This document shows, one piece after another, positions 3,048 through 45,813 of a stretch of 64,000 nucleotides of DNA. The first letter of the stretch is position 1; every line of letters begins with the position of its first letter. The notes under the pieces were generated by a model. It was given only the letters and a program-made list of their open reading frames with translations, made no database searches and was not told where the DNA came from. This stretch comes from an uncultured Bacteroidales bacterium (GTDB lineage Bacteria > Bacteroidota > Bacteroidia > Bacteroidales > Paludibacteraceae). Both the position numbers and the translations under genes were made by a program. The stretch is taken from assembly GCA_934728255.1 (NCBI GenBank), contig CAKVEC010000005.1, positions 8,419-72,418 of the forward strand. Reading direction: 5' to 3'.

Positions 3048-3105
3048 CATTTACAATACGTAACCATTGAAGTGCATTTTATTTGCATATATTGTAGAAA
3101 AGTGC

Positions 3106-3113
3106 TACCTTTG
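3106..3113 (+). promoter_or_regulatory. Bacteroidota -7 promoter motif TAnnTTTG ('tacctttg')
   Basis: Exact match to the TAnnTTTG consensus, 24 nt upstream of the ATG at 3137. Confidence 0.45.
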
Positions 3114-3136
3114 TGAGCAAATAAGTGTGTTAATGT

Positions 3137-26423: not shown

Positions 26424-27797
26424 ATGATAACGATTATGAAAAACAAGAATGTATTATTTCGTATGGCGGCACGCTGCGAGGCTGCAGGACGCCCGAACAA
26501 TGAAGATAACTATCAAATAGATGCCGACCTGTCTGACGACAAGTGGGGCTTTACGGCGGATGCACAAGTCGAGTTGGGCAAAAAAGGTGCTCTGTTGGTT
26601 GTATGCGATGGTATGGGTGGAATGAATGCCGGTGAAGTAGCCTCCGCCATTGCTGTAGAAACTATCAAAAGTCATTTCGCAGCGGAGCAACTGACCGATG
26701 CTGCATTGACAGAGCCGATGGCATACATCAAAAATGCCATTGTGGCTGCCGATGCTGCTATCAAGAAACATGGCAAGGAGCATCCCGACACTGCCGGTAT
26801 GGGTTCTACTATCGTGTTGGCATGGCTGCTCGGCAAGAAAGTATATGTCGGTTGGTGTGGCGATAGCCGTTGCTATTGCTACAATTCCAAGACAGGACTG
26901 GTTCGCTTGAGTCACGACCACTCGTATGTGCAGGAATTGGTGGATGCCGGCAAACTGACCGAGGAACTGGCTTTCGACCATCCGAACAACAATATCATTA
27001 CGCGCTCGCTGGGGGACCCTAATGGTACGGCCCGTCCGGATGTGAAAGAGTATGACCTCCATAATGAGGATATTCTGCTCTTGTGTTCCGATGGGCTATG
27101 TGGTTGCCTCCGTGATAATGAGATAGAGGAGCAACTGGCTGCTCACCAGACCTCAATGCAGGAATGTCGTGATGCACTTTGGGTTGCAGACGAGGCGGCA
27201 GGGTGGCATGATAATGTTACGGTCGCTTTGGCGCAAGTCATCAGTGGTGCAATGCCTGCAGTTTCTGTCAAACAAACATCAAGTTCTGCTGACAAAGCGC
27301 TGCTACAAACCAATAAACGTCTCAAAATTATTATTGCCGTTCTTGCCGTATTGCTGCTCGCGATTCTCTCGGTTTGGGCATACAAACCTGTAAAGCGAAT
27401 GGTTACAGAGAGGAATAATACTACGGGAAGAACAGTTCTGCAATCGGATAGCATATCTGAAAGCACAACAACTGCGGAGCAAGAAAACACAGAGCCTAAA
27501 AAAAATAATCAAAATAACGACACCATTCAGACGCAAACACCCCCAACTCCTCCCAAAGCAGAAGTTGATATCAACAAACTGAATACTGGAAAAGAAAAAG
27601 TTCCGGAGGTTCAAAAAGCAAATGAAGATGTACATAATAACGCTGCTCCAAAACAAGACACGGAAAAGCCAAAAGAGGAAGTGCCTAATGTGAAAACAGT
27701 TGGGGATGATGCTTCGGTAACGGAACCAAGTGCAAATAATGGGGGAACAACCGCATCAAAAACGAATGATAGTTCAGAGCCAAATGATGCCGAATAA
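26424..27797 (+). CDS. PP2C-family Ser/Thr phosphatase with TM anchor and low-complexity tail
   Basis: 'RPNNEDNY', 'LLVVCDGMGGMNAGEVAS', 'GSTIVLAWL...VGWCGDSRCY' and 'LLLCSDGL', then the TM 'LKIIIAVLAVLLLAILSVWAY' and a Thr/Pro/Lys/Glu-rich tail. An alternative start is at 26436. Confidence 0.85.
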   Translation: MITIMKNKNVLFRMAARCEAAGRPNNEDNYQIDADLSDDKWGFTADAQVELGKKGALLVVCDGMGGMNAGEVASAIAVETIKSHFAAEQLTDAALTEPMAYIKNAIVAADAAIKKHGKEHPDTAGMGSTIVLAWLLGKKVYVGWCGDSRCYCYNSKTGLVRLSHDHSYVQELVDAGKLTEELAFDHPNNNIITRSLGDPNGTARPDVKEYDLHNEDILLLCSDGLCGCLRDNEIEEQLAAHQTSMQECRDALWVADEAAGWHDNVTVALAQVISGAMPAVSVKQTSSSADKALLQTNKRLKIIIAVLAVLLLAILSVWAYKPVKRMVTERNNTTGRTVLQSDSISESTTTAEQENTEPKKNNQNNDTIQTQTPPTPPKAEVDINKLNTGKEKVPEVQKANEDVHNNAAPKQDTEKPKEEVPNVKTVGDDASVTEPSANNGGTTASKTNDSSEPNDAE

Positions 27798-27900
27798 TTT
27801 TTGTGCTGCCGTTTTTTGCATAGACATATTCTCCAAATTATGCATAATAAGCAATTCCTATACTTCATAATACAATTTACGGCAACGAGACGGCAACGAC

Positions 27901-27960
27901 ATACACCTTTATGCGGTGCTTTTATACACTTTATGCACTGTATATCTGCATAAAGTGTAT
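27901..27960. repeat. Three copies of ATACAC(C)TTTATGC(A): two direct, one inverted (14-bp perfect inverted repeat 27924-27937 / 27947-27960)
   Basis: Read directly in the 231-nt spacer between the PP2C gene and the second kinase operon. No T-run follows, so it does not look like a classic terminator. Confidence 0.7.
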
Positions 27961-28028
27961 GGATGTTGTTCTGATGTGGTTGTCCTTAAATAATAGTGAT
28001 TCAACTAAAACCGACTAACGATTAAATT

Positions 28029-29669
28029 ATGCAACTACAAGAAAATACGCTTTTCGCGAATAGATACCAACTTATCAAACTTCTGGGACGCGGTGGCTTC
28101 TCTGAGGTCTGGCTGGCAAAAGACAATTGGACGCACCTCAAGATTGCGCTCAAAGTCTATGCACCAGGCACGGGTATGGACGCCAACGGCTTGCAGGAGT
28201 TCTGTGGTGAACTGGCAAGCGTCTATGACCTCAATCATACCAATCTGCTCAAGCCGCAGCACGTGGATACGTGGGAAAATATGCCGTACTTGATTATGGC
28301 GTATTGTTCGCAAGGTTCATGCGGCAGTAAGTTGGGAAAGATGTCCGAAACTGAGATGTGGAAGTTTATCCACGATGTAGCGGCAGGATTAGCGTACTTG
28401 CATTCGAAAGATGTGGTGCACCAAGATATCAAACCCGACAATATCCTTATTGACGATGCGGGTAACTATCTGATTACCGATTTTGGGGTCTCTACTCGTG
28501 CACGTAGCACGTTGCGCAAAAGCGTTGTTGCTTCTTCTGCAGGCGGTACAACCGCGTATATGGGACCGGAGCGTTTCTCTCGCCAACCGGCTCCTACAAA
28601 GGCAAGCGATATCTGGTCGTTTGGTGCGATGTGCTTTGAGTTATTAGAGGGTGTTGTACCCTTTGGTGAGATAGGTGGCGGTATGCAGAAAGGCGGTGCG
28701 GAGATACCTGCTATCACAGCCGATGTCTCCGATGCCCTCAAATACACTATCACCAAGATGCTCCAAAAGGAGACATGGGACAGACCTACAGCCGCCACTT
28801 TGGTTGAGTGGGCAACCAAGCCCGACGCTATCGAGGTGGATTATTCGTTGCTCGAAGAGACCGAACCGGTAGAAACACCATCGGTAAATCCTGTGGATAG
28901 CGATCGTAGTACGCAACGATTAGATTCTGCCACTGGTATCGGTCAAGCCACGCAGCGATTGGGACATACACCTGCGGAAGAGGAAAACGTACCCTTATCC
29001 CTCTCGCCAACGACCGTTCATGTACCCGCTGAAGGAGGTGTAAAGATCATAGATATAAAATCGGATGATACAAATTGGAGAATTGGTCATTATGACGAAT
29101 GGATACATTGGGTAAGCAATAATAGCAATCGTTTTGTTTTGCGTTTTGACAAGAATAAAACGGGTGAAACGCGTAAATGCTCATTGGAAGTTCGCGCACA
29201 CGACAAGACTGGCAAATTGGTACTTGCAACAGTCCAAGTATCCCAGATCTCTTTACCCAAGAGTAATAATTCTTGGTGGAAATGGCTATTGGGTACTATC
29301 CTTTCGATTGCACTGATAGTTGGTATAGGTACTATGATTGAAAACCAGCAAGAGAAACAGCGTTTAGAATCTGCCCATTCTGCAGCCGTAACACGTTTTG
29401 AACAGCAACTTGACGCTGCCGACTTAGATAATATCACGGCTTTAGAAAATGCGCTACAGAGTTTGCGAGACATTGGAAACCTCGAAGATAATAGCAAGTA
29501 TTCCGGCTCATATGTCTATTATAAAAAACAACAATTACTCAAAGACAAAACGCAATCCTTGTACAATACTGCCAATCGTAAATACCAGAAAGCCCCTGCT
29601 GGAACTGATACCGAGCGGAGAAATAAGGAAAAACGTGATAGACTAAATGAAATTTATAATAAGATTTAA
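28029..29669 (+). CDS. Hanks-type Ser/Thr kinase (non-RD, 'HQD') - BACON-like domain - TM - coiled-coil tail
   Basis: 'LLGRGGFSEVWL', 'ALKVY', 'HQDIKPDNILI', 'DFGVS' and 'YMGPERF'. The stretch 'LSLSPTTVHVPAEGG...WRIG...WIHWVS...RKCSLEVRA' is BACON-like. The TM is 'WWKWLLGTILSIALIVGIGTMI'. Confidence 0.85.
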   Translation: MQLQENTLFANRYQLIKLLGRGGFSEVWLAKDNWTHLKIALKVYAPGTGMDANGLQEFCGELASVYDLNHTNLLKPQHVDTWENMPYLIMAYCSQGSCGSKLGKMSETEMWKFIHDVAAGLAYLHSKDVVHQDIKPDNILIDDAGNYLITDFGVSTRARSTLRKSVVASSAGGTTAYMGPERFSRQPAPTKASDIWSFGAMCFELLEGVVPFGEIGGGMQKGGAEIPAITADVSDALKYTITKMLQKETWDRPTAATLVEWATKPDAIEVDYSLLEETEPVETPSVNPVDSDRSTQRLDSATGIGQATQRLGHTPAEEENVPLSLSPTTVHVPAEGGVKIIDIKSDDTNWRIGHYDEWIHWVSNNSNRFVLRFDKNKTGETRKCSLEVRAHDKTGKLVLATVQVSQISLPKSNNSWWKWLLGTILSIALIVGIGTMIENQQEKQRLESAHSAAVTRFEQQLDAADLDNITALENALQSLRDIGNLEDNSKYSGSYVYYKKQQLLKDKTQSLYNTANRKYQKAPAGTDTERRNKEKRDRLNEIYNKI

Positions 29670-29670
29670 T

Positions 29671-30819
29671 ATGAAACGACTAATTCTATTAGGTTGCTTA
29701 ATATGCACTTGTTCATTTTTTGTCTATGCTGATGAAGATTGTACGGGTGCGCTTCAAGAGGCAAAGTCCGCATACAATGCAGGAGATTATCAAAAAGCAA
29801 AAAGGTTATATGACTATGTAGTGTCAGAATGTGGGAACAACTATGGGAATGCTGCCGTTATGCTAAGGCAATGCGAAGAAATGCTAAACCCCAAGTTGTC
29901 TGTTAGTAGATCCTACATAACAATAGGCGCCTCGTCCGGTTCTACTACGTTGTCGGTTACAAGCAATCGTAATTGGGAACTGCGAAATACCAATTCAAAT
30001 ATGTTCTCGGTTTATAAAAACGGAAGCACAATCACTATCAACTACTATGCAAATTCAAGTTCCTCATCTCGTTCTGACTATTTTGATGTTGTAACTGCAG
30101 ACGGAAGCAAGTCCGTTCGAATAAACATTTCTCAGTCGGCAGCAAGTATTGCTTCTACATTGTCGGTTAACTCAACGAGTATTTCTAGTCCAGCAAGTGG
30201 CAAGACCGAATACATAATCGTCAATAGTAATACAAATTGGGAAATTCAGTATGCTACAGGCACGATGTATCGTACCACACGTTCTGGAAATATGGTAAAG
30301 GTCGAAATCTTTGCCAATTCTGCGACAAGTAGTAGAACAGATTATTTTTATATCAAGACTGCGGACGGAAGCAAAACACAGAAAATTTCTTTGACACAAT
30401 ATGGAAAAACATCGGCATCTTCTTATAATGCGGCTGCTCGTATTAAGAAAGTTTGGATAGAACATAATGTGTATCAGAATTCTATAAAAGGCATGAAAAT
30501 TCATGTGCGATTTGATGTCGATAATATGAGAAATTGTACAGGACGAGTTGTTGCATACTTCTATCATCAAGGAGGAACTGCGTTGAGAGACGCTAATAAT
30601 AGTTATAGAACGACTTCTGGTGAAATCTCTTGTGGTGAAAGTTTTACGCCTTCATACATTAATACTGCATATAACGATTTCGTTCTTTTTATGCCGTACA
30701 GTGAATTACATTGTACAAGTTATAGTCGCTATAACTTACGTTTTTTTGTTAGTATATTTAATGATCATAGTAGAGAAATGACACAATCAAATTGGGTTCA
30801 GTTTACCTTAACTAATTAA
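29671..30819 (+). CDS. Secreted protein with two BACON-like domains and an unknown C-terminal domain
   Basis: Signal peptide 'MKRLILLGCLICTCSFFVYA'. The repeats are 'LSVSRSYITIGASSGSTTLSVTSNRNWEL...RSDYFDVVTADGSKSVRINISQ' and 'LSVNSTSISSPASGKTEYIIVNSNTNWEI...RTDYFYIKTADGSKTQKISLTQ'. The ATG lies 1 nt after the kinase stop (TAATATG). Confidence 0.65.
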   Translation: MKRLILLGCLICTCSFFVYADEDCTGALQEAKSAYNAGDYQKAKRLYDYVVSECGNNYGNAAVMLRQCEEMLNPKLSVSRSYITIGASSGSTTLSVTSNRNWELRNTNSNMFSVYKNGSTITINYYANSSSSSRSDYFDVVTADGSKSVRINISQSAASIASTLSVNSTSISSPASGKTEYIIVNSNTNWEIQYATGTMYRTTRSGNMVKVEIFANSATSSRTDYFYIKTADGSKTQKISLTQYGKTSASSYNAAARIKKVWIEHNVYQNSIKGMKIHVRFDVDNMRNCTGRVVAYFYHQGGTALRDANNSYRTTSGEISCGESFTPSYINTAYNDFVLFMPYSELHCTSYSRYNLRFFVSIFNDHSREMTQSNWVQFTLTN

Positions 30820-30831
30820 TATGTGAAATCT

Positions 30832-32319
30832 ATGCAACTAATCGAAAATACGTATTTTGGCGAGAATAATCGCTATTATTTGGAGAAACTACTCGGTAGA
30901 GGTGGGTTTTCAGAAGTTTGGTTGGTGAAAGATAATATCACCAACTTGGAATTAGCCCTAAAGGTGTATGCCCCCGGCACAGGAATGGATGAAGACGGCT
31001 TACAGACTTTCAGTCAAGAGTTGGCGCGGGTCTATAATCTCAATCATACAAATCTTCTCAAACCTCAGCATGTAGATTCATATCAAGGTATGCCTTACCT
31101 GACTATGTCCTATTGCCCGCAGGGGTCTTTGGTTAGGCGGATAGGTAAGATGTCAGAACAGGAGGTTCGCAAAGTTATTCACGATGTGGCTGCAGGATTG
31201 GCGTATCTGCACGAGCGTGATATTATCCACCAAGACATCAAACCCGACAATATATTGATAGATAATGCGGGCAATTATGTCATTACTGATTTCGGTATTT
31301 CAACCCGCGCTCGCAGCACGTTGCGCAAGAGTGTAGCAGCCTCTTCTGCTAATTCGGGTGGTACAATTGCGTATATGGGACCGGAGCGTTTCGGCAAAGA
31401 ACCTGCACCTATCAAAGCCAGCGATATATGGTCGTTGGGCGCAATGTGCTATGAACTGATGACCGGCGATACACCATTTGGCGAACATGGAGGACTTATT
31501 CAGAAATCAGGGGCAGAAATTCCTAATATAGGGGGTAACTACTCAGACGAACTTAAACAGATAGTGGAGCAGATGTTATCCCTCAATCCGTGGGACAGAC
31601 CTACGGCTGCGGCTTTGGAGAAAGGAGATTTCTCAACTACAGTACCGGAGCGTAATCGTCCTACGGTGGCAAAAACTACGTCTCGTTCTACACAACCAAC
31701 CGTTAATTCACCAACAGACAATGGAATAATAAAAAACAATTCTACACAAAACAATGTAGGAACAACAAATAAGAAAAAGAAAATTGTGTGGACTATCGTA
31801 TGCTTCCTATTATTAGTCGCATTAGCAGTAGGTATCAGTATATGTGTGAACAATAATAATGCGCAAACCTATAGTACTGCACAACAGACACAACCCGTTT
31901 CTACTATTTCAAAACCAGTTGTAGAAGAATATAGGTATGAAACCATAGATAAAAATAGGGTACAGACTTTACTTACCAATATATCCCGTTGCTCGAGTAG
32001 AGGAGGCAATTATAGTTTGTTGAGCGATTATTATACATACGAGATAAATCCATATGTTAGAGTGGGAGTAAACAGATATAATTATGATATAGGTGAAAAA
32101 ATCAAAGCCTACGCGGAGAAATTCCCTAAATACGAAATGTCAGACCCTTATAATTTCTCATACCTAAATACTTCATTTCCATTAACGGTCAAATGTGATG
32201 TATTGGTGGATTGGATTAATACACAAGGTATTTCCCGAAAGGCTATTCTTCATAAAACTTACTATATAACATCTGATTACAAAGTATCCGGATTTACTGA
32301 CGAACAAGTAAATCTGTAA
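30832..32319 (+). CDS. Hanks-type Ser/Thr kinase (non-RD), paralogue of 28029..29669, with TM and divergent C-terminal domain
   Basis: It shares long identical runs with the upstream kinase: 'LLGRGGFSEVWL', 'ALKVYAPGTGMD', 'LNHTNLLKPQHVD', 'IHDVAAGLAYLH', 'HQDIKPDNILID' and 'STRARSTLRKSV'. The start MQLIEN parallels MQLQEN. The TM is 'IVWTIVCFLLLVALAVGISICV'. Confidence 0.85.
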   Translation: MQLIENTYFGENNRYYLEKLLGRGGFSEVWLVKDNITNLELALKVYAPGTGMDEDGLQTFSQELARVYNLNHTNLLKPQHVDSYQGMPYLTMSYCPQGSLVRRIGKMSEQEVRKVIHDVAAGLAYLHERDIIHQDIKPDNILIDNAGNYVITDFGISTRARSTLRKSVAASSANSGGTIAYMGPERFGKEPAPIKASDIWSLGAMCYELMTGDTPFGEHGGLIQKSGAEIPNIGGNYSDELKQIVEQMLSLNPWDRPTAAALEKGDFSTTVPERNRPTVAKTTSRSTQPTVNSPTDNGIIKNNSTQNNVGTTNKKKKIVWTIVCFLLLVALAVGISICVNNNNAQTYSTAQQTQPVSTISKPVVEEYRYETIDKNRVQTLLTNISRCSSRGGNYSLLSDYYTYEINPYVRVGVNRYNYDIGEKIKAYAEKFPKYEMSDPYNFSYLNTSFPLTVKCDVLVDWINTQGISRKAILHKTYYITSDYKVSGFTDEQVNL

Positions 32320-32344
32320 AATATAGTTGAGAGTCTATAACATT

Positions 32345-33991
32345 ATGAACCGATTAACAGTTCTTTTGGCGGCACTCTGCATGTCAGTGATGTCGCTCGT
32401 GGCGCAGCAGACTGCGCAAATCAGACAATTGATGGATAGTGCACAATATGCGGAAGCGGTGCAACTATGTACCATCGAGTTACAACAACACCCCAAGGAT
32501 GGTATGCTGTACCGCTGTCGTGCCATTGCCAACATCATGCAGGAGCAATATGGTATGGCGTTGCAGGATATAGATATGCTTCTCAAGTATGCCAAGACAT
32601 CCGGTATATCCGTCAGCGAAGTATATGAACTGCGTGGTGCCACATATATGTATGCGGGTGAGTTGCAGAAAGCGTTGGACGACTACACCACCGCCATCAA
32701 GAAAGACAAGAAGAACGCCGATGCGTATGCCGCACGGGGTGAGTTGTACTACCATAAGGAGAACTACGCGGCAGCCCTTGCGGACTACAAGGCGGCAAGC
32801 AAATTAGTGCCAGCCGATGACTCGTACCTCGTGGAGATAGCACGCTGTACCCTGCAATTGGGCAAATATGATGAGGCGCGTGCCATGCTCACTTCTATCA
32901 CAGTGCTCTATCCCTACAACGCCGAGGCGTGGCGACTGTCCGCAGGATTGGCGATGTTGAGCGGCGAGACTACCAAGTTCATAGACCAGTATATCCGTTA
33001 CCTCAATCTCAGTTACAACGAGACAGGGCGGTTTGGCGATACCGATATACTGATTGCCGCCGCCGATACCGAGTATCCGTACCTGCTCCATGCCGTGTCC
33101 GAACAGATAAGCAACCTAACGGATTATCCGCAGTTGTTCTATATGGGTGTCCGTGTCCGTATCTATATAGAGAAAGGGTACTATGCCGATGCTATCAAAG
33201 ACTTGGATATGATGGAGCGGATAGAGGGAACCGCCGACCCGTTTGTGCTTGCCAATCGCGCAGATTGCTACCAAAACCTGTATCAGTACCACAAGGCGAT
33301 AGCCGATTATGATGCTATGTTGGCATTGGATGCCACCTATTCGTATGGTTATATCAGTCGTGGTTTGTGCTATGCCGAGTTGGGGCAATACGACAAGGCT
33401 ATCGGTGACTTTACGTACGTTATACAAAATGATGTCAATTATGCCTATTATGCCTACTATCGCAGAGGGTGGGTGTATGAGTTCCAAAAGGATACTACGG
33501 CGGCACTATCCGACTACTCGCGCGGAATAGAGTTGGAAGATGACTATAATTATTTGCATCTGATGCGTGGCGAGATATATTGGAATATGGGAGATACCCT
33601 GCAAGCCAAATCCGATTTTGAAAGAATACTCGAATTGGATACGGTAGCCCGTGCAGGGTCGTGCCGCCAATATGCATTGTACTTCTTGGGACAAGAAAAT
33701 GAGGCTGTGCAGTGGATGCAAAGTATGATAGAGAGTGCATCTGACAAGGCCGGGTGTTACTATGATGCCGCTTGTCTGTATGCCCGTATGAACAAGACAG
33801 AAGAGGCGTTGGCGGCTTTCGACAAGTGCCTGTCGTTGGGGTATAAACGGTTCAAACATATTGAAGTGGATGATGACCTTGACAATATCCGCAACCTGCC
33901 GCGCTTCACTGAGATACTCAACAAGTACCGCAAACAAGAGGTACAGAGCAAGTTCGATTTGCTGAAAGGGGCTGATACGGATATGAAATAG
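32345..33991 (+). CDS. Secreted TPR-repeat protein
   Basis: Signal peptide 'MNRLTVLLAALCMSVMSLVAQQ', then many 34-aa repeats with the A/Y/G pattern, for example 'AYAARGELYYHKENYAAALADYKAA'. Confidence 0.8.
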   Translation: MNRLTVLLAALCMSVMSLVAQQTAQIRQLMDSAQYAEAVQLCTIELQQHPKDGMLYRCRAIANIMQEQYGMALQDIDMLLKYAKTSGISVSEVYELRGATYMYAGELQKALDDYTTAIKKDKKNADAYAARGELYYHKENYAAALADYKAASKLVPADDSYLVEIARCTLQLGKYDEARAMLTSITVLYPYNAEAWRLSAGLAMLSGETTKFIDQYIRYLNLSYNETGRFGDTDILIAAADTEYPYLLHAVSEQISNLTDYPQLFYMGVRVRIYIEKGYYADAIKDLDMMERIEGTADPFVLANRADCYQNLYQYHKAIADYDAMLALDATYSYGYISRGLCYAELGQYDKAIGDFTYVIQNDVNYAYYAYYRRGWVYEFQKDTTAALSDYSRGIELEDDYNYLHLMRGEIYWNMGDTLQAKSDFERILELDTVARAGSCRQYALYFLGQENEAVQWMQSMIESASDKAGCYYDAACLYARMNKTEEALAAFDKCLSLGYKRFKHIEVDDDLDNIRNLPRFTEILNKYRKQEVQSKFDLLKGADTDMK

Positions 33992-35710: not shown

Positions 35711-35852
35711 TTAGGTCTTTTAATTTGCAAGTGGCGTAGCGTATAACAGATTGGTGAGTACGCAGACAAAGCACTCAATCAAAATGCAAAAGATATGGAT
35801 TGGCAGTGTTAATTGCGGTGCTAATTGTCGTATTAATAATATGTTTGGCAAT

Positions 35853-36854
35853 ATGAAACTTTCAATCATTCACATTGTCCTTGGGGCAATCATTTTGGCG
35901 GGCATGAGTGCCTGCGCACGGCGGGAGCGTGTGGCTACAGAGCACCCTGTTGCCATTGTGGATTCGTTGCAACAGATAGTGGCGGAAGAGGTGCAAGCAC
36001 GTGTTAATCGCACTGAAGCCGAGTGGGGTGTCGGCATAATGATTGACACACACAGCGGGACGGTGGTGGCGATGTACGATACCGATTCCACACTTGTGCA
36101 TGCGCAGTCGGCATGGGAGTTGGGGAGTGTCGTCTCGCCATTGGCTCTGCTGGCGGCATATTCCGTAGAGCCACAGGGGTGGGATAGTGCTGTCGGGGTG
36201 TGCCGAAGTGGTTTTGACTATGCAGGACGTGTGTTTCGGGACGGACATGCGCGTGATGCAGTCTATTCGCTGTCCGATGCTATTGCTACGAGCAGCAAGG
36301 CAGCAGTTGTCCGATATATGCTTCGCGTGTTTGAGCAGCAGCCGGCATTACTGCCCGAGATACTTGCCAAGTGGGGCTTTGAGTTTGCAGCGCAGGATAG
36401 TGCGTGCGATGCTATGACCGAGACACTGGAGTATGCCACGGGCTACCATTGTACCATCACGCCTGGGCAACTCGCCTATCTGTATTCGTGTGTGGCTACG
36501 GGGCAGCACTTGCATGTTCCTGCCAGCGGGTTGGACTCTATCCGGTTGGGGTTGCACCGCGTGGTGTGGGATAATGATTTAGGCACGGCGAGCATCAATC
36601 CGTGGGATATGCGGAAGGCGCAAAGCGACAAGGTGCAGATTGCAGGCAAGACAGGGGCGGCGCAAATCTCCATGGGCGGGAACTATGCCGGTAATCACCA
36701 CCGTTTGTCTTTTGTCGGTTATTTCCCCGAAGCCAATCCGCAGTATACGTGTCTGGTTATTCTCAATAATCCCAAGTATTACGGCTATTACGAAGCAGGT
36801 GCCGATTGCGGCATTCCTGTCCGTCGTATTGCAGAAAAGATATCTACAGAATAG
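35853..36854 (+). CDS. Stand-alone PBP transpeptidase-fold lipoprotein with degenerate catalytic motifs
   Basis: Lipobox 'LAGMSAC'. It aligns to class B PBP motifs: 'GVGIMIDTHSGTVVAMYD', 'ELGSVVSP' (where ..GSxxKP is expected), 'ATSSKAAV' (where SxN is expected), 'AGKTGAAQ' (KTG retained) and 'SFVGYFPEANP'. Confidence 0.7.
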   Translation: MKLSIIHIVLGAIILAGMSACARRERVATEHPVAIVDSLQQIVAEEVQARVNRTEAEWGVGIMIDTHSGTVVAMYDTDSTLVHAQSAWELGSVVSPLALLAAYSVEPQGWDSAVGVCRSGFDYAGRVFRDGHARDAVYSLSDAIATSSKAAVVRYMLRVFEQQPALLPEILAKWGFEFAAQDSACDAMTETLEYATGYHCTITPGQLAYLYSCVATGQHLHVPASGLDSIRLGLHRVVWDNDLGTASINPWDMRKAQSDKVQIAGKTGAAQISMGGNYAGNHHRLSFVGYFPEANPQYTCLVILNNPKYYGYYEAGADCGIPVRRIAEKISTE

Positions 36855-36911: not shown

Positions 36912-37637
36912 ATGAAGAGGAAAAAGAAATATACGAAAAACAGGAGAAAGTACCACCAATTGCCTGCAATCCATAGGAAAAAACAGATTATTCCTATCGG
37001 TACCTCTGTGCAAGAATCGGTTACGGCTATAATATATCAAAGCGAATTGGATTATATCTCGCGCTGCATAATGGATTGCCCTCGGATAGAAACCGGTGGA
37101 CAATTATTTGGTTTCTACACAATGAAAGGAACTCCGGTGGTATGCTATGCGCTCGGGCCGGGATCGAATGCCAATCATCAGATTACATTCTTTAATCAGG
37201 ATATCCCCTATCTGCAGTCTAACGGAACGATCTTGGCAAAAGAGTTTGCTTTGCAGCATATCGGAGAATGGCACTCGCATCATAGTTTGGGATTGGATCA
37301 TCCCAGCAGTCATGATTCGCACACGATGATATCTGCTATCAATACACATCATCTGGGGACAATGCTCCTCTGTATAGGGGTATGCGATGCCGAAGGTGCC
37401 ACCATAAACGGCTTTCTGTATAGCGAGGGGCAAATTAATTATCCACAAGTAAACTGGATGATAAAAGCGCAAGAAAGTCCCTATCGCAAGATAGCCGACG
37501 AGCGATTGATTCGCTCTGTCGTTCATCCTATAACTACTATTCCTAAACTGAAAAAGATGCGAATTGCTACGATTACATTGGCTACAGGGCAGGATAATAA
37601 ATACTTGTTACGTGCATATACCGATTTACAACTATGA
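36912..37637 (+). CDS. JAB/MPN (JAMM) metallopeptidase
   Basis: 'ETGGQLFG' supplies the Glu and 'EWHSHHSLGLDHPSSHD' is the HxH...S..D JAMM signature. Confidence 0.8.
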   Translation: MKRKKKYTKNRRKYHQLPAIHRKKQIIPIGTSVQESVTAIIYQSELDYISRCIMDCPRIETGGQLFGFYTMKGTPVVCYALGPGSNANHQITFFNQDIPYLQSNGTILAKEFALQHIGEWHSHHSLGLDHPSSHDSHTMISAINTHHLGTMLLCIGVCDAEGATINGFLYSEGQINYPQVNWMIKAQESPYRKIADERLIRSVVHPITTIPKLKKMRIATITLATGQDNKYLLRAYTDLQL

Positions 37638-38062
37638 TGACAAAGCAACGATTACAAGCCGAAAAGACTGTACTTGAAAAATACTTGAAACCGAATACAT
37701 ATCGGTTCATGGATATGAATACTGGGAACCCGTATATAGTTATGGCTGTTATGACCAATTCGGGAAAGGTTTACACTATCCGGATTATGTTGAGAGAATT
37801 TCCTAATAGTGTGCCTTCGGTTCAAGTGATTACTCCGATTCGAACCAAGCGAGGTCGTGCGATGAATATGCCGGACGGAAGTATGCATGTATTAGGGCTT
37901 GAAGACGGACATACGCTGATATGTCATTATGGTCCCCTATCATGGACACCCAATGTGTCTTTATTCAAGGTCTATATGAAATGCCGCCTATGGTTCGAGA
38001 TGTATGAGGAACATCTGCGAACCGGTGCTCCGATAGATACATTTTTACCTCATCAAGACTAA
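37634..38062 (+). CDS. E2 (UBC)-like protein
   Basis: The start overlaps the JAB stop (ATGA). 'EFPNSVPSVQVITPI', 'SMHVLG' and 'GHTLICHYGPLSWTPNVSL' follow the E2 layout (PxxPP-like strand, His, catalytic Cys, WxP). Confidence 0.65.
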   Translation: MMTKQRLQAEKTVLEKYLKPNTYRFMDMNTGNPYIVMAVMTNSGKVYTIRIMLREFPNSVPSVQVITPIRTKRGRAMNMPDGSMHVLGLEDGHTLICHYGPLSWTPNVSLFKVYMKCRLWFEMYEEHLRTGAPIDTFLPHQD

Positions 38063-38086: not shown

Positions 38087-38266
38087 ATGGAAAAGAAAAT
38101 GTCACCACTGGCACAAGCCGTTCAGGAGGCACAACGCCCCCGTCCAACAATTGATTTGGTTTACAATTCTGACACAGGTGTGTTCTCGGAAACAGCAGCA
38201 GGAAGTGTTACGGAAGGTCTGCCCGTTACAGAAATCACTAAAGGAGGATTCGCATGTCGGAACTAA
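38087..38266 (+). CDS. 59-aa mini-ORF with near-C-terminal Gly-Gly, candidate modifier/precursor peptide (not in supplied ORF track)
   Basis: My translation is MEKKMSPLAQAVQEAQRPRPTIDLVYNSDTGVFSETAAGSVTEGLPVTEITKGGFACRN*. Its last 13 nt overlap the E1-like start at 38254. It shares a motif block with the N-terminus of ORF 39200. Confidence 0.45.
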   Translation: MEKKMSPLAQAVQEAQRPRPTIDLVYNSDTGVFSETAAGSVTEGLPVTEITKGGFACRN

Positions 38267-39183
38267 CAGAAAAGAAATATCCTTCGCGCGAGGAGTTTTA
38301 TTCTCGTGCAAAGGGTATCCTTGAAGTAGATATTTTGCGAAATAAGCGTGTGGCTATCATCGGGCTGGGGAGTTTCGGATCGCATATCGCAGTGGAGTTG
38401 GTAAAAGCAGGTGTGGAAACATTCCACCTGTTTGATTTTGATACGATAGAGGTGCACAATCTGGCTCGTCATACGGCTTCCGTCCATGACATCGGGCGGC
38501 TGAAAACAGATGTGATGAAGGATACTATATTGGGTAAGAATCCATATGCAACGGTGCATTTGTACCCGATAGATATTCATCTCAATCCTGGGCCGTTAAC
38601 CGCTTTATTGAAGGCGCAATTGATAGACCTTATTATATGTGCGACCGACAACAACTCCAGCCGGTACATTTTAGCCCAACTAGCAAGTGAGTACAATGTT
38701 ACTTGTATCTATGGGCGTGCTATCACGCGAGCAGAGGGAGGAGATGTCTTCATACAGCGTCCTGGAGAAGCCTGCTACTGCTGCTTGGTGGGCAATGATT
38801 GGTTTGATGCTGCAGACGAGGAGATTAGTGATGAAAACTCTGCGCGTAGAGATGGACGTATTCCAGCATACGCATCGGCAGAAGATGCCGATGTAATGGT
38901 ACAAGTGGGGTTGTCATCGGACATTATGCCTATCTGCAATATGATGGTCAAGTTGGCACTGATTGAACTATCCAGAGGACTCGAATCCGGTTTGCAGGAG
39001 TTGGAGAAAGAATTGCGGTTCAACTATTATATGTGGGCCAATCGGCGGGAACGGCGTCATAAGAACTGGGCTGCGTTCGGTGAAAGTGGCAGTTTGCCCA
39101 CAATTCTTCGATGGTATGGAGCACAAATCTCTAAGAAAGAGCATTGTGCAGTATGTTCGACTTCTATAGAATTGGAAATATAG
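38254..39183 (+). CDS. E1-like ThiF/MoeB-family adenylating enzyme
   Basis: 'FYSRAKGIL', 'RVAIIGLGSFGSHIAVELVKAGV', 'FDFDTIEVHNLARH', 'ICATDNNSSR' and 'ACYCCL'. Confidence 0.85.
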   Translation: MSELTEKKYPSREEFYSRAKGILEVDILRNKRVAIIGLGSFGSHIAVELVKAGVETFHLFDFDTIEVHNLARHTASVHDIGRLKTDVMKDTILGKNPYATVHLYPIDIHLNPGPLTALLKAQLIDLIICATDNNSSRYILAQLASEYNVTCIYGRAITRAEGGDVFIQRPGEACYCCLVGNDWFDAADEEISDENSARRDGRIPAYASAEDADVMVQVGLSSDIMPICNMMVKLALIELSRGLESGLQELEKELRFNYYMWANRRERRHKNWAAFGESGSLPTILRWYGAQISKKEHCAVCSTSIELEI

Positions 39184-39199: not shown

Positions 39200-39622
39200 A
39201 TGAATGATTTGAATGACATTGTTTTTAATCCCGAGACCGGGCTGTTTGAGAGCAAAACCAATATCACAGCCCACCTTACGGAGTGCCAAATACAGGGGGG
39301 TAGCAGAAGCCGTCGTATGATAGACCCCGCACGTGCTGCCTTGAAACCCGTCATAGTGGATTTTCGGGTAGAAGGCGGATATGAGCATAAGGTCGGATCT
39401 GAGGTATGTGTGCGTTGGCGTGTGGCAAATGCGCAGAAAATCATTATTCATTTCCACAATCACCGCGCATTGGAATATGATATGCAGGGTACTTTGCGGT
39501 TTGTTATGCCTGATGAGGATTGCAAGGTACGCTTGGTTGCAACGAATCAGGACGTAAAAACCCAAAGTACTATTTCCTTGATATCTCGTCGTCTAACCAT
39601 CTTCGACCGTTTATTCAGGTGA
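39200..39622 (+). CDS. Hypothetical protein: N-terminal GG-terminated module paralogous to the mini-ORF, plus a beta-rich C-terminal domain
   Basis: 'NDIVFNPETGLFES...LTECQIQGG' parallels 'IDLVYNSDTGVFSE...VTEITKGG'. The remainder ('KPVIVDFRVEGG...VCVRWRV...KIIIHF...CKVRLVATN') looks like an Ig-like sandwich, which is an inference. Confidence 0.5.
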   Translation: MNDLNDIVFNPETGLFESKTNITAHLTECQIQGGSRSRRMIDPARAALKPVIVDFRVEGGYEHKVGSEVCVRWRVANAQKIIIHFHNHRALEYDMQGTLRFVMPDEDCKVRLVATNQDVKTQSTISLISRRLTIFDRLFR

Positions 39623-39749: not shown

Positions 39750-42700
39750 ATGGAACCAACAAATACCTCCCATACCGTCCAAACGGCAAACGCTCAAAAC
39801 AGAGTGAACTATTGGGAACGGAAACTTTTGGATTTGACCAAGAGTAATGCACTCATCAATATACGATATGGAAATACTTGTATTGCATTGACAAATGAGG
39901 CAACCGAAGAAATATATGCAGAACTGACAGACGGAGGTAATATGCCTCTCCTGTCCTCCTGCAATACTTCTACACACGGCTTGCAAACCGCATTGGAAGA
40001 CAAAGAACTCGCTCAAAATGCGAAAGAACTGATGCGAACGGCCCAAAGCAATTTGGAAGAGATTGGCAATGCGCAACTGTTTGTAGTGATGGGAATGTTA
40101 CAATACATAGACAATCCTAACCCATTTCAACCTTCTGCCGCCATAGACTCTCATGTGGCACCCGTGTTGCTGCTACCCGTTAAGATTACACGGCAACGTA
40201 TAACCGGAGTGTACTACATATCTGCAATGGGAGACGAACCGTGTGTAAACGTTACGCTCATAGAACTGCTCAAGCAACAACATGAACGCAACTTATCTTC
40301 GCTTGTCGCCAATACAGATACCACGCCTGACTACAGGAAAGTAATGGAGACTTTTCAGGAGTTGGCAGCAAGCAAAACCGACTGGCATTTCTATTCAGGT
40401 ATGTGCGTAGGGATATTCTCGTTTGCCAAGTTTGTGATGTGGAGTGATATCCATACCAACTCCGAGCGTATGCTGAAATCGTCGTTAGTGGAAAGCCTTG
40501 TAGAGAAACGAAAAGCGGATTCGATGGCAATACCCGACAGTGATGCGCGGACAATGGACAAGGAAACAAAGCCCATAGAGTTGGCATTGCCTTTAGACGC
40601 CGATAGTTCGCAAATAGAGGCTGTAGCAGATGCTTCCGCAGGAAAAAGTTTCTTGCTCTATGGTCCTCCGGGGACAGGCAAAAGCCAGACAATTACCAAC
40701 ATCATTGCCAATGCCATTTACCACAAACAGCAAGTGCTTTTTGTAGCACAGAAGCGTGCTGCGCTGGAAGTGGTACAGGAGCGTTTACAGCAAATAGGTA
40801 TTGATTCGTTTTGCTTGGAACTGCACTCTAACAAAGCCACCAAAACGTATCTGATCAACCAGTTGGAGCAGGTGATGAGCAGCGCATACAGCAATGATTT
40901 TGAACGGGATTTTCATAATGTTTCCGAGCAACTGTTCGCGCGTCGTAAACAGTTGCTGCAATATATAGAAGCATTGAATGCTCCGCATAGCATGCACGGA
41001 GATGAATACTCTTTAGCCGATTGCATTGAGCAGTATTGTGCCATTGATGCTGCAGGGCTATTGTCGTTTGATTTTGACCAACCGACACTCTCACGCACTA
41101 CCAACGCAGAGTTGGATAGTATTGCCAACACCTTGCACGAGATGCAAACCATTCGTCCTACATTTGCAAGCATCGAGAAGCATCCATTACGCACATTGCT
41201 TCCACGTGACGGACGTATTAGTGCGATTGAGAATATATGTAACAAGTTGCAGGAACTGCGGCAAGACATAGTGGAGATTTCACTCAACCAAAACGGGTTG
41301 CGCAAATGGTTGCGCTTGTCGGGCTTGCAACAACGTTACCATCTGCATGAGATTGAATTGCAAGATTTAGCCACCATTGTTTGGGACACCTCGGCATTGT
41401 ATGAAGACAAACAAAAAGACATTAGCCAATGGTTAGCCCATCGTGCGGAAATGAAAGAGTGGAGTCTGTATAGTGTCAGGTGGAATCGTGTGACGGATTT
41501 GGGATATCCACAATTGGCAGATGCTATGGAGGCAGAGACTGATACAGTCGTTGTGCAATCTTTGCGCCGGGCTGTTTATCAACAACGTGCAATGGATATT
41601 ATTGATTCGGATAACACCCTAACCATGTTCAACGGGAAAGTGTTTGAGGAGATAATCGCAGAATATCGTCGGTTGTTCAGCGAATTTCAATCACTGACGA
41701 AACAAATTCTGCTACTACGGCTGCAAAACAATGTGCGCGATACGCTATTAAGTCCAAATCCTATAATCCAAAGTTCGTTAACAATCATTCGCCGATGGAT
41801 CAAACAACACGGGCGCGGTATGAGTATTCGGCATTTGTTTGCAGAACATGGCGAAGTATTGCGTACTCTCTGTCCGTGCCTGCTGATGTCTCCAATCTCT
41901 GTGGCACAATACCTGCCTATACGCTCTTCCTTATTCGATATGGTGCTGTTTGACGAGGCATCACAGATCCCTACTTCGGAAGCAGTCGGAGCCATTGCAC
42001 GTGGCAAGGCTGTTGTGATTGTGGGGGACCCGAAGCAGATGCCGCCGACCACTTTTTTCCAAACGCAATTATTTTCGGAAGAAGATATAATCAATGGCGA
42101 TATGGAATCGGTGCTTGACGACTGTATTACATTGGGAATGCCAGACCATTACCTAAACTATCATTATCGTTCACGTCATGAATCGTTGATTGCTTTCAGT
42201 AATCATTACTACTATGACGACAAATTAGTAACTTTCCCTAGCGCAGACAACAGAATTTCGCATTTGCATTATTGCTATGTAGAGAGCGTTTATGATTATA
42301 GTGCTACCCGTACTAACCGCTTGGAAGCAGAGGCGTTGGTTCTGGAAGTGATCAGGCGATTGGGTAACCCTGAACAGAGTCGTTGCTCAATGGGTATCAT
42401 TGCATTCAGTAAGGTTCAGCAAGACTTGATTGAAGAACTGCTTTCGGAGCAACTATCACGCCGACATAATTTGGAAAAACGGGCTTTTGGTGAGAATAGG
42501 GAACCTCTGTTTGTTAAGAATTTGGAGAATGTGCAAGGTGATGAACGCGATGTTATCTTCTTGTCGGTAGGTTATGGACCGGACAAGGACGGGAAAATTA
42601 GTATGAATTTCGGACCGCTGAATAACGCCGGTGGTGAGAGGCGTCTGAATGTAGCCGTTACTCGTGCCAGACAGGAGATGTTGGTCTTCACCGGAATGCA

Positions 42701-43154
42701 TTCGGAAGATATCGACTTGTCTAAGTCACAGGCACTTGGTGTGGAAGGACTGAAGAATTTTCTATACTACGCTGAGCATCATGAATTGCCTCAAGATATT
42801 GCTGCTCCGGGACAGAACTATCCCCTACATCCTATTGCTGTGCAATTGGCAGATGTGTTGCGTAACGAAGGCTATCGTGTGGATACAGGAGTCGGGCAAA
42901 GCGATTTTCGTATAGATGTTGCTGTTGTCAATCCCGCATGTCCTGATATGTACCTATTGGGCATACAGATAGACGGGTGGCGCTACTATCAAACACCCAC
43001 TATGCGAGATCGTGCCTTGGTGCAACCTGATGTATTGCAGGGGCTTGGTTGGAAAATTGTACACATTTGGCAAGAAGATTATTTCCATTCCCCGCAAATT
43101 GTCATACGACAACTACTGAATATCCTGACACAAACGACTAATAACCAACAATAA
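39750..43154 (+). CDS. Superfamily 1 (DNA2/Upf1-like) helicase with C-terminal PD-(D/E)xK endonuclease-like domain
   Basis: 1134 aa with 'LLYGPPGTGKSQTITNIIA', 'VLFDEASQIP', 'VIVGDPKQMPPT', 'HYRSRHESLIAFSN', 'NVQGDERDVIFLSVGY' and 'RLNVAVTRAR'. The C-terminal 'DFRIDVAVV...LGIQIDGWRYY...RDRALVQPDVLQGLGWKIVHIW' is Vsr/DUF559-like. The N-terminus is possibly DUF4011, from memory. Confidence 0.85.
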   Translation: MEPTNTSHTVQTANAQNRVNYWERKLLDLTKSNALINIRYGNTCIALTNEATEEIYAELTDGGNMPLLSSCNTSTHGLQTALEDKELAQNAKELMRTAQSNLEEIGNAQLFVVMGMLQYIDNPNPFQPSAAIDSHVAPVLLLPVKITRQRITGVYYISAMGDEPCVNVTLIELLKQQHERNLSSLVANTDTTPDYRKVMETFQELAASKTDWHFYSGMCVGIFSFAKFVMWSDIHTNSERMLKSSLVESLVEKRKADSMAIPDSDARTMDKETKPIELALPLDADSSQIEAVADASAGKSFLLYGPPGTGKSQTITNIIANAIYHKQQVLFVAQKRAALEVVQERLQQIGIDSFCLELHSNKATKTYLINQLEQVMSSAYSNDFERDFHNVSEQLFARRKQLLQYIEALNAPHSMHGDEYSLADCIEQYCAIDAAGLLSFDFDQPTLSRTTNAELDSIANTLHEMQTIRPTFASIEKHPLRTLLPRDGRISAIENICNKLQELRQDIVEISLNQNGLRKWLRLSGLQQRYHLHEIELQDLATIVWDTSALYEDKQKDISQWLAHRAEMKEWSLYSVRWNRVTDLGYPQLADAMEAETDTVVVQSLRRAVYQQRAMDIIDSDNTLTMFNGKVFEEIIAEYRRLFSEFQSLTKQILLLRLQNNVRDTLLSPNPIIQSSLTIIRRWIKQHGRGMSIRHLFAEHGEVLRTLCPCLLMSPISVAQYLPIRSSLFDMVLFDEASQIPTSEAVGAIARGKAVVIVGDPKQMPPTTFFQTQLFSEEDIINGDMESVLDDCITLGMPDHYLNYHYRSRHESLIAFSNHYYYDDKLVTFPSADNRISHLHYCYVESVYDYSATRTNRLEAEALVLEVIRRLGNPEQSRCSMGIIAFSKVQQDLIEELLSEQLSRRHNLEKRAFGENREPLFVKNLENVQGDERDVIFLSVGYGPDKDGKISMNFGPLNNAGGERRLNVAVTRARQEMLVFTGMHSEDIDLSKSQALGVEGLKNFLYYAEHHELPQDIAAPGQNYPLHPIAVQLADVLRNEGYRVDTGVGQSDFRIDVAVVNPACPDMYLLGIQIDGWRYYQTPTMRDRALVQPDVLQGLGWKIVHIWQEDYFHSPQIVIRQLLNILTQTTNNQQ

Positions 43155-44970: not shown

Positions 44971-45813
44971 ATGAAAACGGGACTGGTGCTGGAAGGCGGC
45001 GGAATGCGCGGAATTTATACCTGCGGAGTGTTGGATATCATGATGGACAAGGGCTTTGAACCCGATGTGCTGTGCGGTACATCAGCGGGTGCGCTTTTTG
45101 GTGTCAACCTTCCGTCCAAGCAACGTGGCAGAGCCTTTGATTACAACTATCGTTACTGCGACAATCCCGACTATGTCTCCATTCGTTCCCTCATTCGCAC
45201 GGGTAATATGGTGAATGTGGATTTTTCGTACAACCGTATTCCCAACGAGTTGGCTCCGTTTGACGAAGTCGCATACGAAGCCTCGAAAACCCAAGTCTTC
45301 GCTACCGTAACCAACGTAAAAACAGGCAAAGCCGAATACAAGCATATCGAAAATTGTATGACGCAAATAGACTGGCTCCGAGCATCGGGTACGTTGCCGT
45401 TTATTTCCCATAGGGTGCATATCGGTGAGAATGAGTACTTGGATGGCGGATTGGTGGACAATATCCCGCTGGATAAAGCGTTTGAGGAGGGCTGCGACAA
45501 GGTGATTGTGGTGCTGACGCGCCCCATTGAGTTCCGTCTGAACGAGCACATGTATTTGCTCAGCAAGATATTTTATCCGCAAGAAAAGAACCTGCAACAG
45601 GCATTGCGTGTGCGCAGTGCGAACTACAACAAACGTATGCAGCAGGTGCGCCAACTGAAGGAGGAAGGCAAGATTTTTGTATTCTCGCCCGAAACATTGT
45701 TGCCCGTGCGCCGTTTGGAGCGCAATCCGCTCCACCTCAAACAAATCTACCACCTCGGTCTCCGTGATGCCACCCGCGAATGGAGTAAACTGGAAAACTA
45801 TCTGCAAAAATAA
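44971..45813 (+). CDS. Patatin-like phospholipase
   Basis: 'LVLEGGGMRGIYTCGVLD' (oxyanion GGG.RG), 'GTSAGA' (GxSxG) and 'DGG' (the catalytic Asp motif). Confidence 0.85.
   Translation: MKTGLVLEGGGMRGIYTCGVLDIMMDKGFEPDVLCGTSAGALFGVNLPSKQRGRAFDYNYRYCDNPDYVSIRSLIRTGNMVNVDFSYNRIPNELAPFDEVAYEASKTQVFATVTNVKTGKAEYKHIENCMTQIDWLRASGTLPFISHRVHIGENEYLDGGLVDNIPLDKAFEEGCDKVIVVLTRPIEFRLNEHMYLLSKIFYPQEKNLQQALRVRSANYNKRMQQVRQLKEEGKIFVFSPETLLPVRRLERNPLHLKQIYHLGLRDATREWSKLENYLQK

Follow-up and report, generated by a model that had tools for sequence, protein, structure and literature searches.

A conserved small gene in an E1-E2-JAB cassette of Bacteroidales may encode a protein modifier without the ubiquitin fold

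A stretch of 64,000 nucleotides (nt) from an uncultured Bacteroidales bacterium of the family Paludibacteraceae (contig CAKVEC010000005.1 of the assembly GCA_934728255.1, positions 8,419 to 72,418 of the forward strand; hereafter, the window) contains a small open reading frame (ORF) that encodes a peptide of 59 amino acids (aa) and lies between the genes for an E2-like and an E1-like protein (Table 1). These three genes belong to a cassette of five that travel together, in the order JAB metallopeptidase, E2, peptide, E1 and a 140-aa partner protein, with flanks that change between loci. We propose, with a probability of roughly 0.6, that the ORF encodes the precursor of a modifier of about 56 residues that does not have the ubiquitin fold and that would be trimmed by the JAB protein, activated by the E1 and attached with the help of the E2 via a C-terminal Gly-Phe-Ala (GFA). 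As judged from sequence comparison, its three enzymes resemble a Cap2/Cap3 module, known from type II cyclic oligonucleotide-based antiphage signalling systems (CBASS), in split form, and the nucleotide cyclase is absent.

Comparison shows that the ORF of 59 codons is a genuine gene and is conserved. Its homologues include eight public proteins of 53-59 aa (79-98% identity), all of which preserve the frame; NCBI and gene callers label such homologues “hypothetical protein” (e.g., WP_300949355.1). In a DNA alignment of five loci (the window, L001, L002, L004 and L005), the ratio of nonsynonymous to synonymous differences (pN/pS) is 0.17 in the frame of the peptide, and 38 of the 59 variable columns fall on the third codon position. 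Four of the other frames have pN/pS values of 1.1-2.9; frame -1 shows a value of 0.24, yet contains stop codons in every locus. An earlier reading of this DNA from the sequence only (hereafter, the sequence-only reading) had proposed a codon-level comparison with the overlapping minus-strand ORF 38102..38311, the frame of which has a pN/pS of about 1.1 and acquires extra stops in other loci. The frame of the peptide is under purifying selection. The ORF and its translation given in that reading are identical to those in the ORF listing, and the coordinates confirm the 13-nt overlap with the ATG of E1 at 38254. The gap between E2 and E1 is not filled exactly, as had been stated, because a 24-nt A/T-rich spacer follows the end of the E2-like ORF at 38062. 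Frame retention in homologous loci, another of the proposed checks, is evident both from this alignment and from the broader comparison described below.

A scan of a genome collection with E1 yields only two close loci and L003 from Granulicella, which on inspection proved to be an unrelated MoeB-like gene and was discarded; a metagenome scan adds 80 further loci, and the comparison set used here consists of 93 related loci. According to the peptide profile, about 89 of these 93 loci (62 distinct sequences) encode the peptide next to the related E1, either as a separate ORF directly upstream of E1 (47 loci) or in frame with the next enzyme (42 loci). When a profile derived from a narrow alignment of the peptide is compared with 1.84 billion representative proteins, only 13 matches are obtained, and four of these are spurious, namely the FG-GAP/VCBS-like repeat proteins P0142 and P0146 and the other repetitive proteins P0138 and P0140. 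The cassette is found in Bacteroidota and Kiritimatiellae and is common in human-gut and rumen Bacteroidales.

Among 75 distinct DNA versions of the peptide, the last three residues of the proposed mature form are Gly (75/75), Phe (73/75, with one Tyr and one Trp) and Ala (75/75), and all four glycine codons and all four alanine codons are in use. Invariance of these residues at the protein level, combined with synonymous codon turnover, points to selection on the amino acids and not to a Shine-Dalgarno artefact of the purine-rich string AAAGGAGGA, which is located 6 nt 5' of the E1 ATG and might, in the window, be taken for a ribosome-binding site. The string itself is not conserved, being represented by GAGGGC or GAAGGA in other loci. 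The residue that precedes the glycine of GFA, i.e., the first G of the “GG” in the window, is Gly in only 12 of the 75 versions. The conserved end, therefore, is Gly-Phe-Ala and not the Gly-Gly of the sequence-only reading, and the tail comprises three residues, CRN, instead of the five, FACRN, given there, since F and A are invariant.

What follows GFA varies freely. Most of the unfused homologues end right at GFA, where stop and E1 start overlap as ATGA or TAATG; in the others, GFA is extended by 1-5 residues that are unrelated (S, I, C, G, F, A, V, GV, CRN, WQK, YGTR or LRLAA). The stand-alone homologues of 57-62 aa identified in the peptide profile search end in GFA, GFAA or GFASV, and the homologue from Kiritimatiellae, a 64-aa protein encoded in the same gene arrangement, has GFA followed by LRLAA and no overlap with its E1. 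Relatives have TGA directly after GCA; the window has TGT at this position, and with the stop lost the frame reads on for three more codons into the 5' end of E1. The terminal Asn of the window peptide is, on this comparison, an accident of read-through into the E1 start: it is replaced by Lys or absent already in close homologues (tails CRN, WQK or none) and is missing in nearly all distant ones. An invariant GFA followed either by a few freely varying residues or by a fused enzyme is a signature of ubiquitin precursors and of those of ubiquitin-like proteins (Ubls). For example, BilA carries up to nine extra C-terminal residues that are removed by its JAB, and BubAB is a Ubl-E2 fusion that is cut by its JAB (PMC11601596).

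The consensus of the peptide consists of a predicted helix (L..LAE.VR..), a predicted beta-hairpin (DLV[FY][DN]P.TG[ED]F) and the C-terminal segment.RG...G..VTEMT..GFA; in the proposed modifier, the hairpin reads DLVYNxxTGVF and the extended tail VTE[IM]TxxGFA. The family alignment contains no conserved Lys. In an AlphaFold2 (AF2) model of a natural peptide-E1 fusion (P0060), the part that corresponds to the peptide is modelled as a helix (residues 5-21) followed by four strands (27-32, 37-42, 51-57 and 60-63), with a low confidence score (pLDDT of 53-67); the order of elements thus predicted would differ from the beta-beta-alpha-beta-beta arrangement of the beta-grasp. Neither the peptide nor the 140-aa partner matches any family in Pfam, NCBIfam, PHROGs or PADLOC. 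The peptide is duplicated in tandem in P0144, and L024 encodes, in addition to a fusion, a second, free copy that ends in GWAF.

The E1 has 1540 relatives at E<=1e-5; a search of viral contigs gives none. The relatives with about 70% identity are short (304-309 aa), as in the window, and those with about 60% identity are 410-490 aa long, with about 110 additional residues that form an N-terminal domain; some of the long E1s (P0060, P0117) carry the peptide at the extreme N-terminus. Fusions to E2 also exist in one sub-clade (211 aa; L065, L073 and L024, at about 3025..3660), and in L053 (1217..3154) the peptide, E2 and E1 form a single 646-aa protein. In all these fusions, the junction is at GFA, which is followed by a short linker of variable sequence and length. 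Since the short-E1 clade retains the peptide as a gene of its own, and since fusions to E1 as well as to E2 occur, the peptide is a module in its own right and does not belong to E1.

The JAB protein contains the metal-site motifs ETGG and HSHH...SSHD and is encoded upstream in 82 of the 93 loci; we propose that it trims the peptide after GFA and/or reverses the conjugates. The E2-like protein is present in 90 of the 93 loci, with invariant residues C97, H98, W104 and C117. Among 27 members of the E2 family, 14 match the PADLOC profile PDLC00863 (best E=7.7e-6) and two match BilB weakly; sequence and profile searches of the PDB with this protein give no meaningful match to any solved structure. 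The E1, with GLGSFG and ATDNN at its ATP site, matches PADLOC Cap2 “E1-E2” models with E-values down to 2e-26, and its closest solved structures are MoeB, MccB, UBA5, Cap2 and ThiF; the fold matches of a fused E1 homologue are BubCD, UBA5, ThiF, MoeB and Cap2. MccB and PaaA match the E1 across the nucleotide-binding region, with E of about 1e-9 to 1e-11. An N-terminal extension is absent from the window E1 and, as the sequence-only reading had noted, no peptide-clamp domain is found in its 309 residues. In the region examined (residues 178-228), the family has no conserved Cys between the first CxxC and the nearly invariant Cys228, and the motif Ala205-Tyr206-x-Ser208 is invariant roughly where a rough alignment places the catalytic Cys of Cap2. 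A PDB search with the C-terminal half of E1, aimed at aligning that Cys, returned only noise. By analogy, the Ala-Tyr-x-Ser motif recalls the tyrosine oxyester of the Bub E1 and may be a parallel to it.

Combining these observations, the following pathway can be outlined. The peptide would be translated together with E1, given the overlapping or abutting stop and start codons. The JAB would then remove everything after Ala56, that is, CRN in the window and, in relatives, 0-5 residues or an entire E1, E2 or E2-E1. By analogy with Cap2, the E1 would adenylate the carboxylate of Ala56, and the acyl group would pass to Cys97 of E2 and on to an amine of the target. The proven substrates of Cap2 are disordered CD-NTase tails without a beta-grasp, the last residue of which is Gly or Ala across 1,583 operons and Ala in Enterobacter cloacae (PMC10097602). 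An end of the type ...Phe-Ala is a documented substrate end for a Cap2-type E1 because the remnant left on the acceptor in E. cloacae is Phe-Ala (bioRxiv 10.1101/2022.03.31.486616).

Several points weigh against this proposal. The peptide part of the fusion model reaches only the low pLDDT values given above, and its placement in the model is not confident. The assignment of E2 relies on weak profile matches and a conserved Cys-His, and the lack of a conserved Cys at the approximate Cap2 catalytic position of E1 makes a thioester relay less certain. A bulky Phe in the penultimate position is uncommon among E1 substrates, although in Atg8 and Atg12 an aromatic residue precedes the terminal Gly. 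Finally, fusion of the peptide to E1 or E2 is compatible also with a non-covalent subunit.

The latter interpretation is the main rival, and we consider it unlikely: the peptide would be a scaffold, a regulator or a recruiter of hairpin-containing proteins that binds E1 and E2 and is never adenylated, with GFA as a docking motif. It would fit with the frequent in-frame fusion to E1, E2 and E2-E1, with the occurrence of the same hairpin in the peptide and in proteins encoded downstream (see below), and with an E1 that has no conserved Cys at the position expected from Cap2. However, GFA is at the exact C-terminus of most unfused forms, only a few unconstrained residues follow it in the remaining ones, and the post-GFA linkers of the fusions vary in both sequence and length, a pattern typical of a processing site or a reactive end. 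Furthermore, the short-E1 clade retains the peptide despite the loss of the N-terminal domain that adjoins it in the fusions found elsewhere, and the JAB and the Cys-His E2 would be left without a substrate in the operon. At the other extreme, hardly any credence can be given to the notion that the ORF is a chance occurrence and the codons of KGG (AAAGGAGGA) serve only as the ribosome-binding site of E1. The ORF is short and the string is appropriately placed, but the purifying selection in this frame, the presence of the peptide in about 89 of the 93 loci and in two phyla, and the synonymous turnover of the G, F and A codons refute it.

Two further possibilities originate from the sequence-only reading. 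One, which we find improbable, is a ribosomally synthesized and post-translationally modified peptide (RiPP) modified by the ThiF-like enzyme, either of the microcin C type that had been ranked second there or of another type, in which case the JAB would be a leader peptidase. The location of a short peptide gene directly upstream of a ThiF-like gene and the matches of E1 to MccB and PaaA are suggestive of such a system, but the microcin C version, which had been based on the C-terminal Asn of MccA, fails because the terminal Asn is not conserved. Moreover, the window E1 has no peptide clamp, and the prediction for the N-terminal domain of its long relatives is largely beta, which does not resemble the helical clamp of MccB. 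There are no conserved exporter, immunity or tailoring genes beside the cassette, where the flanks vary by locus, whereas the E2 with its invariant Cys-His is nearly universal (90/93) and many lineages have a fusion of the peptide to E1 or E2. The first-ranked suggestion, a Ubl-like precursor trimmed by the JAB, survives in part. A precursor with a variable tail beside E1, E2 and JAB genes is indeed what is found, and such a neighbourhood together with an apparently removable extension is shared with beta-grasp modifiers; the C-terminal Gly of those modifiers is absent, and the Gly-Gly end, the FACRN tail and the beta-grasp itself find no support. A very small beta-grasp Ubl similar to ThiS or MoaD, from which FACRN would be removed before activation at Gly-Gly, would account for the GG followed by five residues in the window, next to E1, E2 and JAB, and is still less probable than a RiPP: the first G is rarely present, F and A are invariant and many homologues end exactly at GFA. 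The resemblance of the C-terminal strand to ThiS/MoaD that had been perceived is not borne out by any match in Pfam, NCBIfam or PHROGs, no Ubl family is matched at all, and the predicted order, a helix and then four strands within about 56 residues, is different.

The proposed modifier can be compared with several characterized systems, among which type II CBASS is similar in that its E1, E2 and JAB are of the same types and provide the best PADLOC matches. The conjugated substrate of CBASS is likewise an extended tail with Gly or Ala as the last residue (Ala in 75 of 75 versions here), and its JAB, Cap3, cleaves exactly after that residue (bioRxiv 10.1101/2022.03.31.486616). In contrast to CBASS, E1 and E2 are encoded by separate genes, the tail belongs to a free-standing protein of about 56 residues without an enzymatic domain, and the putative effectors carry a hairpin tag and are not nucleotide sensors; no CD-NTase or cyclic-nucleotide effector is found among the cassette genes or their conserved neighbours. 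In type I Bub systems, as in the relatives with peptide-E2 and peptide-E2-E1 fusions, the modifier is made as a fusion to a conjugation enzyme and presumably released by the JAB (PMC11601596); these systems also resemble the cassette in having an E1 with a single adenylation domain of the homodimer type in which the usual catalytic Cys may be absent. Unlike the cassette described here, Bub includes a beta-grasp, the DUF6527 protease BubE and a Ser-based E2; the E2 of the cassette has the invariant Cys97, BubE is absent and no match to DUF6527 is obtained. The BilABCD systems of types I and II are also four-part cassettes of modifier, E2, JAB and E1 in which the JAB removes extra C-terminal residues. 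However, BilA is a beta-grasp Ubl that ends in Gly, whereas here the E1 is a single ThiF domain and only 2 of 27 E2s match the BilB model, and weakly. In the FtsH ternary conflict systems, both the Ubl and the effector carry the EAD1 adaptor, for which a role in directing effectors to the conjugated targets has been proposed (Kaur et al. 2020, PMC7159879). The sharing of a small module between modifier and effector recalls the hairpin common to the peptide and the downstream proteins, but EAD1 is a distinct adaptor domain on a true Ubl, and an E3 is present in those systems; here a hairpin of about 13 residues is the shared module, and the modifier has hardly anything beyond this hairpin and the tail.

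As in the MccA/MccB pair, a short peptide gene adjoins the gene for a ThiF-like adenylating enzyme, but MccA is a heptapeptide with an obligatory Asn and MccB possesses a peptide clamp, whereas in the cassette the Asn is not conserved and E2 and JAB are also encoded. Pup of Actinobacteria is a modifier of about 60 residues without the ubiquitin fold, as proposed here. Unlike the peptide, Pup is ligated via the side chain of its C-terminal Glu by PafA, a glutamine synthetase-like enzyme, with no E1, E2 or JAB, and there is no sequence similarity between the two.

The hairpin of the peptide, for which two strands are predicted in a fused homologue, recurs at the N-terminus of proteins encoded downstream. 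In the window, this is the 140-aa partner, which is conserved directly 3' of E1 in window-type loci and the N-terminus of which, MNDLNDIVFNP.TGLFES, does not vary among 8 homologues; when the 64-kb window is scanned in all six frames with a regular expression of the hairpin, only the peptide and the partner match. The beta-sandwich of the partner (residues 50-130) is modelled by AF2 with a pLDDT of about 90 and, in a Foldseek search, matches PKD, Ig and FN3 domains. The GG at residues 33-34 of the partner was considered as a second cleavage site and rejected as not conserved. One or more downstream ORFs open with the hairpin motif in 70 of the 93 loci (e.g., MAYRYNEKTGEFED, MGLRYNDKTGNFEE, MALKFNPKTGEWDE and MYLVYNEQTGDFEE), and all 108 hairpin matches in the related loci are on the operon strand, with none on the opposite strand. 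The bodies headed by the hairpin are diverse and include membrane proteins, either single-pass (61-94 aa) or Ser-rich (136-250 aa), as well as soluble proteins, with lengths of 140, about 345 and 558 aa. As a speculative final step of the pathway, the shared hairpin might unite the tag with the effector or mark the effector as an acceptor. Such tagged proteins, small membrane ones or larger ones, number one or two per locus and start with M[AGP][YL][RK]YN[ED]xTG[ED]FE[ED] (L010, L031-L033, L060, L068, L072, L086, L094 and others); L090 encodes a protein with two copies of the tag. The motif [LV]Y.N.xG.F...AG[LV] resembles the blade motif of FG-GAP/VCBS proteins (P0142, P0146), which probably reflects convergence on a tight beta-hairpin.

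Table 1. Coordinates of the cassette genes and of the sequence elements discussed in the text (window numbering unless a locus is named)
Feature	Position	Strand	Description
JAB/JAMM metallopeptidase	36912..37637	+	241 aa, Cap3-like; PADLOC JAB, best E=3.6e-14; Pfam Prok-JAB weak
E2-like protein	37634..38062	+	142 aa; Cys97-His98 (“ICHY”); PADLOC E2 match, E=5e-4
Small peptide gene	38087..38266	+	ATG start, 59-aa precursor; proposed mature form, residues 1-56, ending in Gly54-Phe55-Ala56
Beta-hairpin motif of the peptide, DLVYNSDTGVFSE	38153..38191	+	L, V, [FY], G and F columns highly conserved
Gly-Phe-Ala	38246..38254	+	Proposed reactive C-terminus after trimming; G 75/75, F 73/75, A 75/75
Tail Cys-Arg-Asn	38255..38263	+	3 residues, non-conserved; other-frame reading of the 5' end of the E1 gene
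E1-like adenylating enzyme, ThiF/MoeB type	38254..39183	+	309 aa, single adenylation domain; Pfam ThiF, E=3.8e-30
Partner protein	39200..39622	+	140 aa; hairpin tag (residues 6-18), disordered basic linker, Ig/PKD/FN3-like beta-sandwich
Hairpin tag of the partner protein, DIVFNPETGLFES	39215..39253	+	Pairwise BLASTP against the peptide, E=0.002
ClpA/ClpB-like AAA+ proteins, examples	L008 7286..11053; L094 2626..5199; L018, L022		Long-E1 loci

Models for the peptide, for the E2 and for the partner are absent from Pfam, NCBIfam and PADLOC (current to 2023-2026) as well as from PHROGs, and the components of the cassette are annotated only as “hypothetical” or “ThiF family”. No description of the cassette was found in the literature, where an earlier one might nevertheless exist, and it is not among the operon classes 6a-6e (Iyer et al. 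2006) or among the systems described in the later papers on Bil, Bub and CBASS. Conjugation by bacterial E1, E2 and JAB is known; the proposed novelty lies in a free-standing, GFA-ended mini-modifier without the ubiquitin fold and in the effectors that share its hairpin. Among the characterized bacterial E1/E2/JAB systems found in the literature, Bil and Bub attach a beta-grasp Ubl, and type II CBASS and its Pycsar/metallo-beta-lactamase (MBL) relatives attach the enzyme's own tail. If the proposed function is correct, the ubiquitin fold would be dispensable for E1/E2 chemistry also outside CBASS, and the cassette would be a minimal, genetically compact tagging system, a pathway reduced to “a tail with a handle”; the presence of the hairpin on effectors that vary otherwise suggests that targeting is modular. 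The more far-reaching proposition, that the peptide is the founding member of a class of non-ubiquitin-fold modifiers of about 55 residues, activated at a C-terminal Gly-Phe-Ala within a widespread E1-E2-JAB system and labelled with a hairpin common to the tag and its effectors, is tentative, and we would put it at a little under an even chance. The effectors in such a system may be membrane proteins, Ig-like proteins and, in the larger versions, a nearby ClpB-like ATPase.

The larger, long-E1 versions of the cassette differ from that in the window in several respects. They usually encode a ClpA/ClpB-like AAA+ protein of about 720-1270 aa with a Clp_N domain, which is absent from the short version in the window. 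The N-terminal domain of the long E1s (P0124, P0060, P0073; residues ~1-110 or 66-160) contains the motif “YEWEGE..VVHL” and is confidently predicted to be mostly beta; by analogy with the N-terminal domain of ATG7, it might recruit E2. Long-form JABs (L008 4296..5321, L010 4479..5519) are 341-346 aa in size and have a C-terminal extension with the motif “FPK.FP...P”, reminiscent of RWD/UEV/E2-like motifs, that the 241-aa JAB of the window lacks. In the clades with peptide-E2 or peptide-E2-E1 fusions, a conserved 267-aa HExxH (metalloprotease-like) protein is encoded downstream.

In Phocaeicola sartorii, the E1 is present in about 200 blocks of the assembly collection, and in contigs of this type (L008 2420..3625) a tyrosine integrase adjoins the cassette, suggesting that the latter is carried on a mobile island. 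In the window, the cassette is followed by a gene (39750..43154) for a 1134-aa protein that combines DUF4011, a superfamily 1 (SF1) helicase and an MTES_1575 nuclease and matches PDC-S37, a candidate defence model of PADLOC, with E=1.8e-287, as well as Hhe. This helicase-nuclease is not conserved beside the cassette in other loci and is an island neighbour, not a part of the cassette, because the five genes travel together while the flanks change. A penicillin-binding protein (PBP)/transpeptidase-like protein is encoded nearby (35751..36854), and the broader surroundings (26424..33991 and 44971..45813) contain genes for a PP2C phosphatase, two Ser/Thr protein kinases, a TPR protein and a patatin-like phospholipase, so that the region as a whole looks like a conflict or signalling island.

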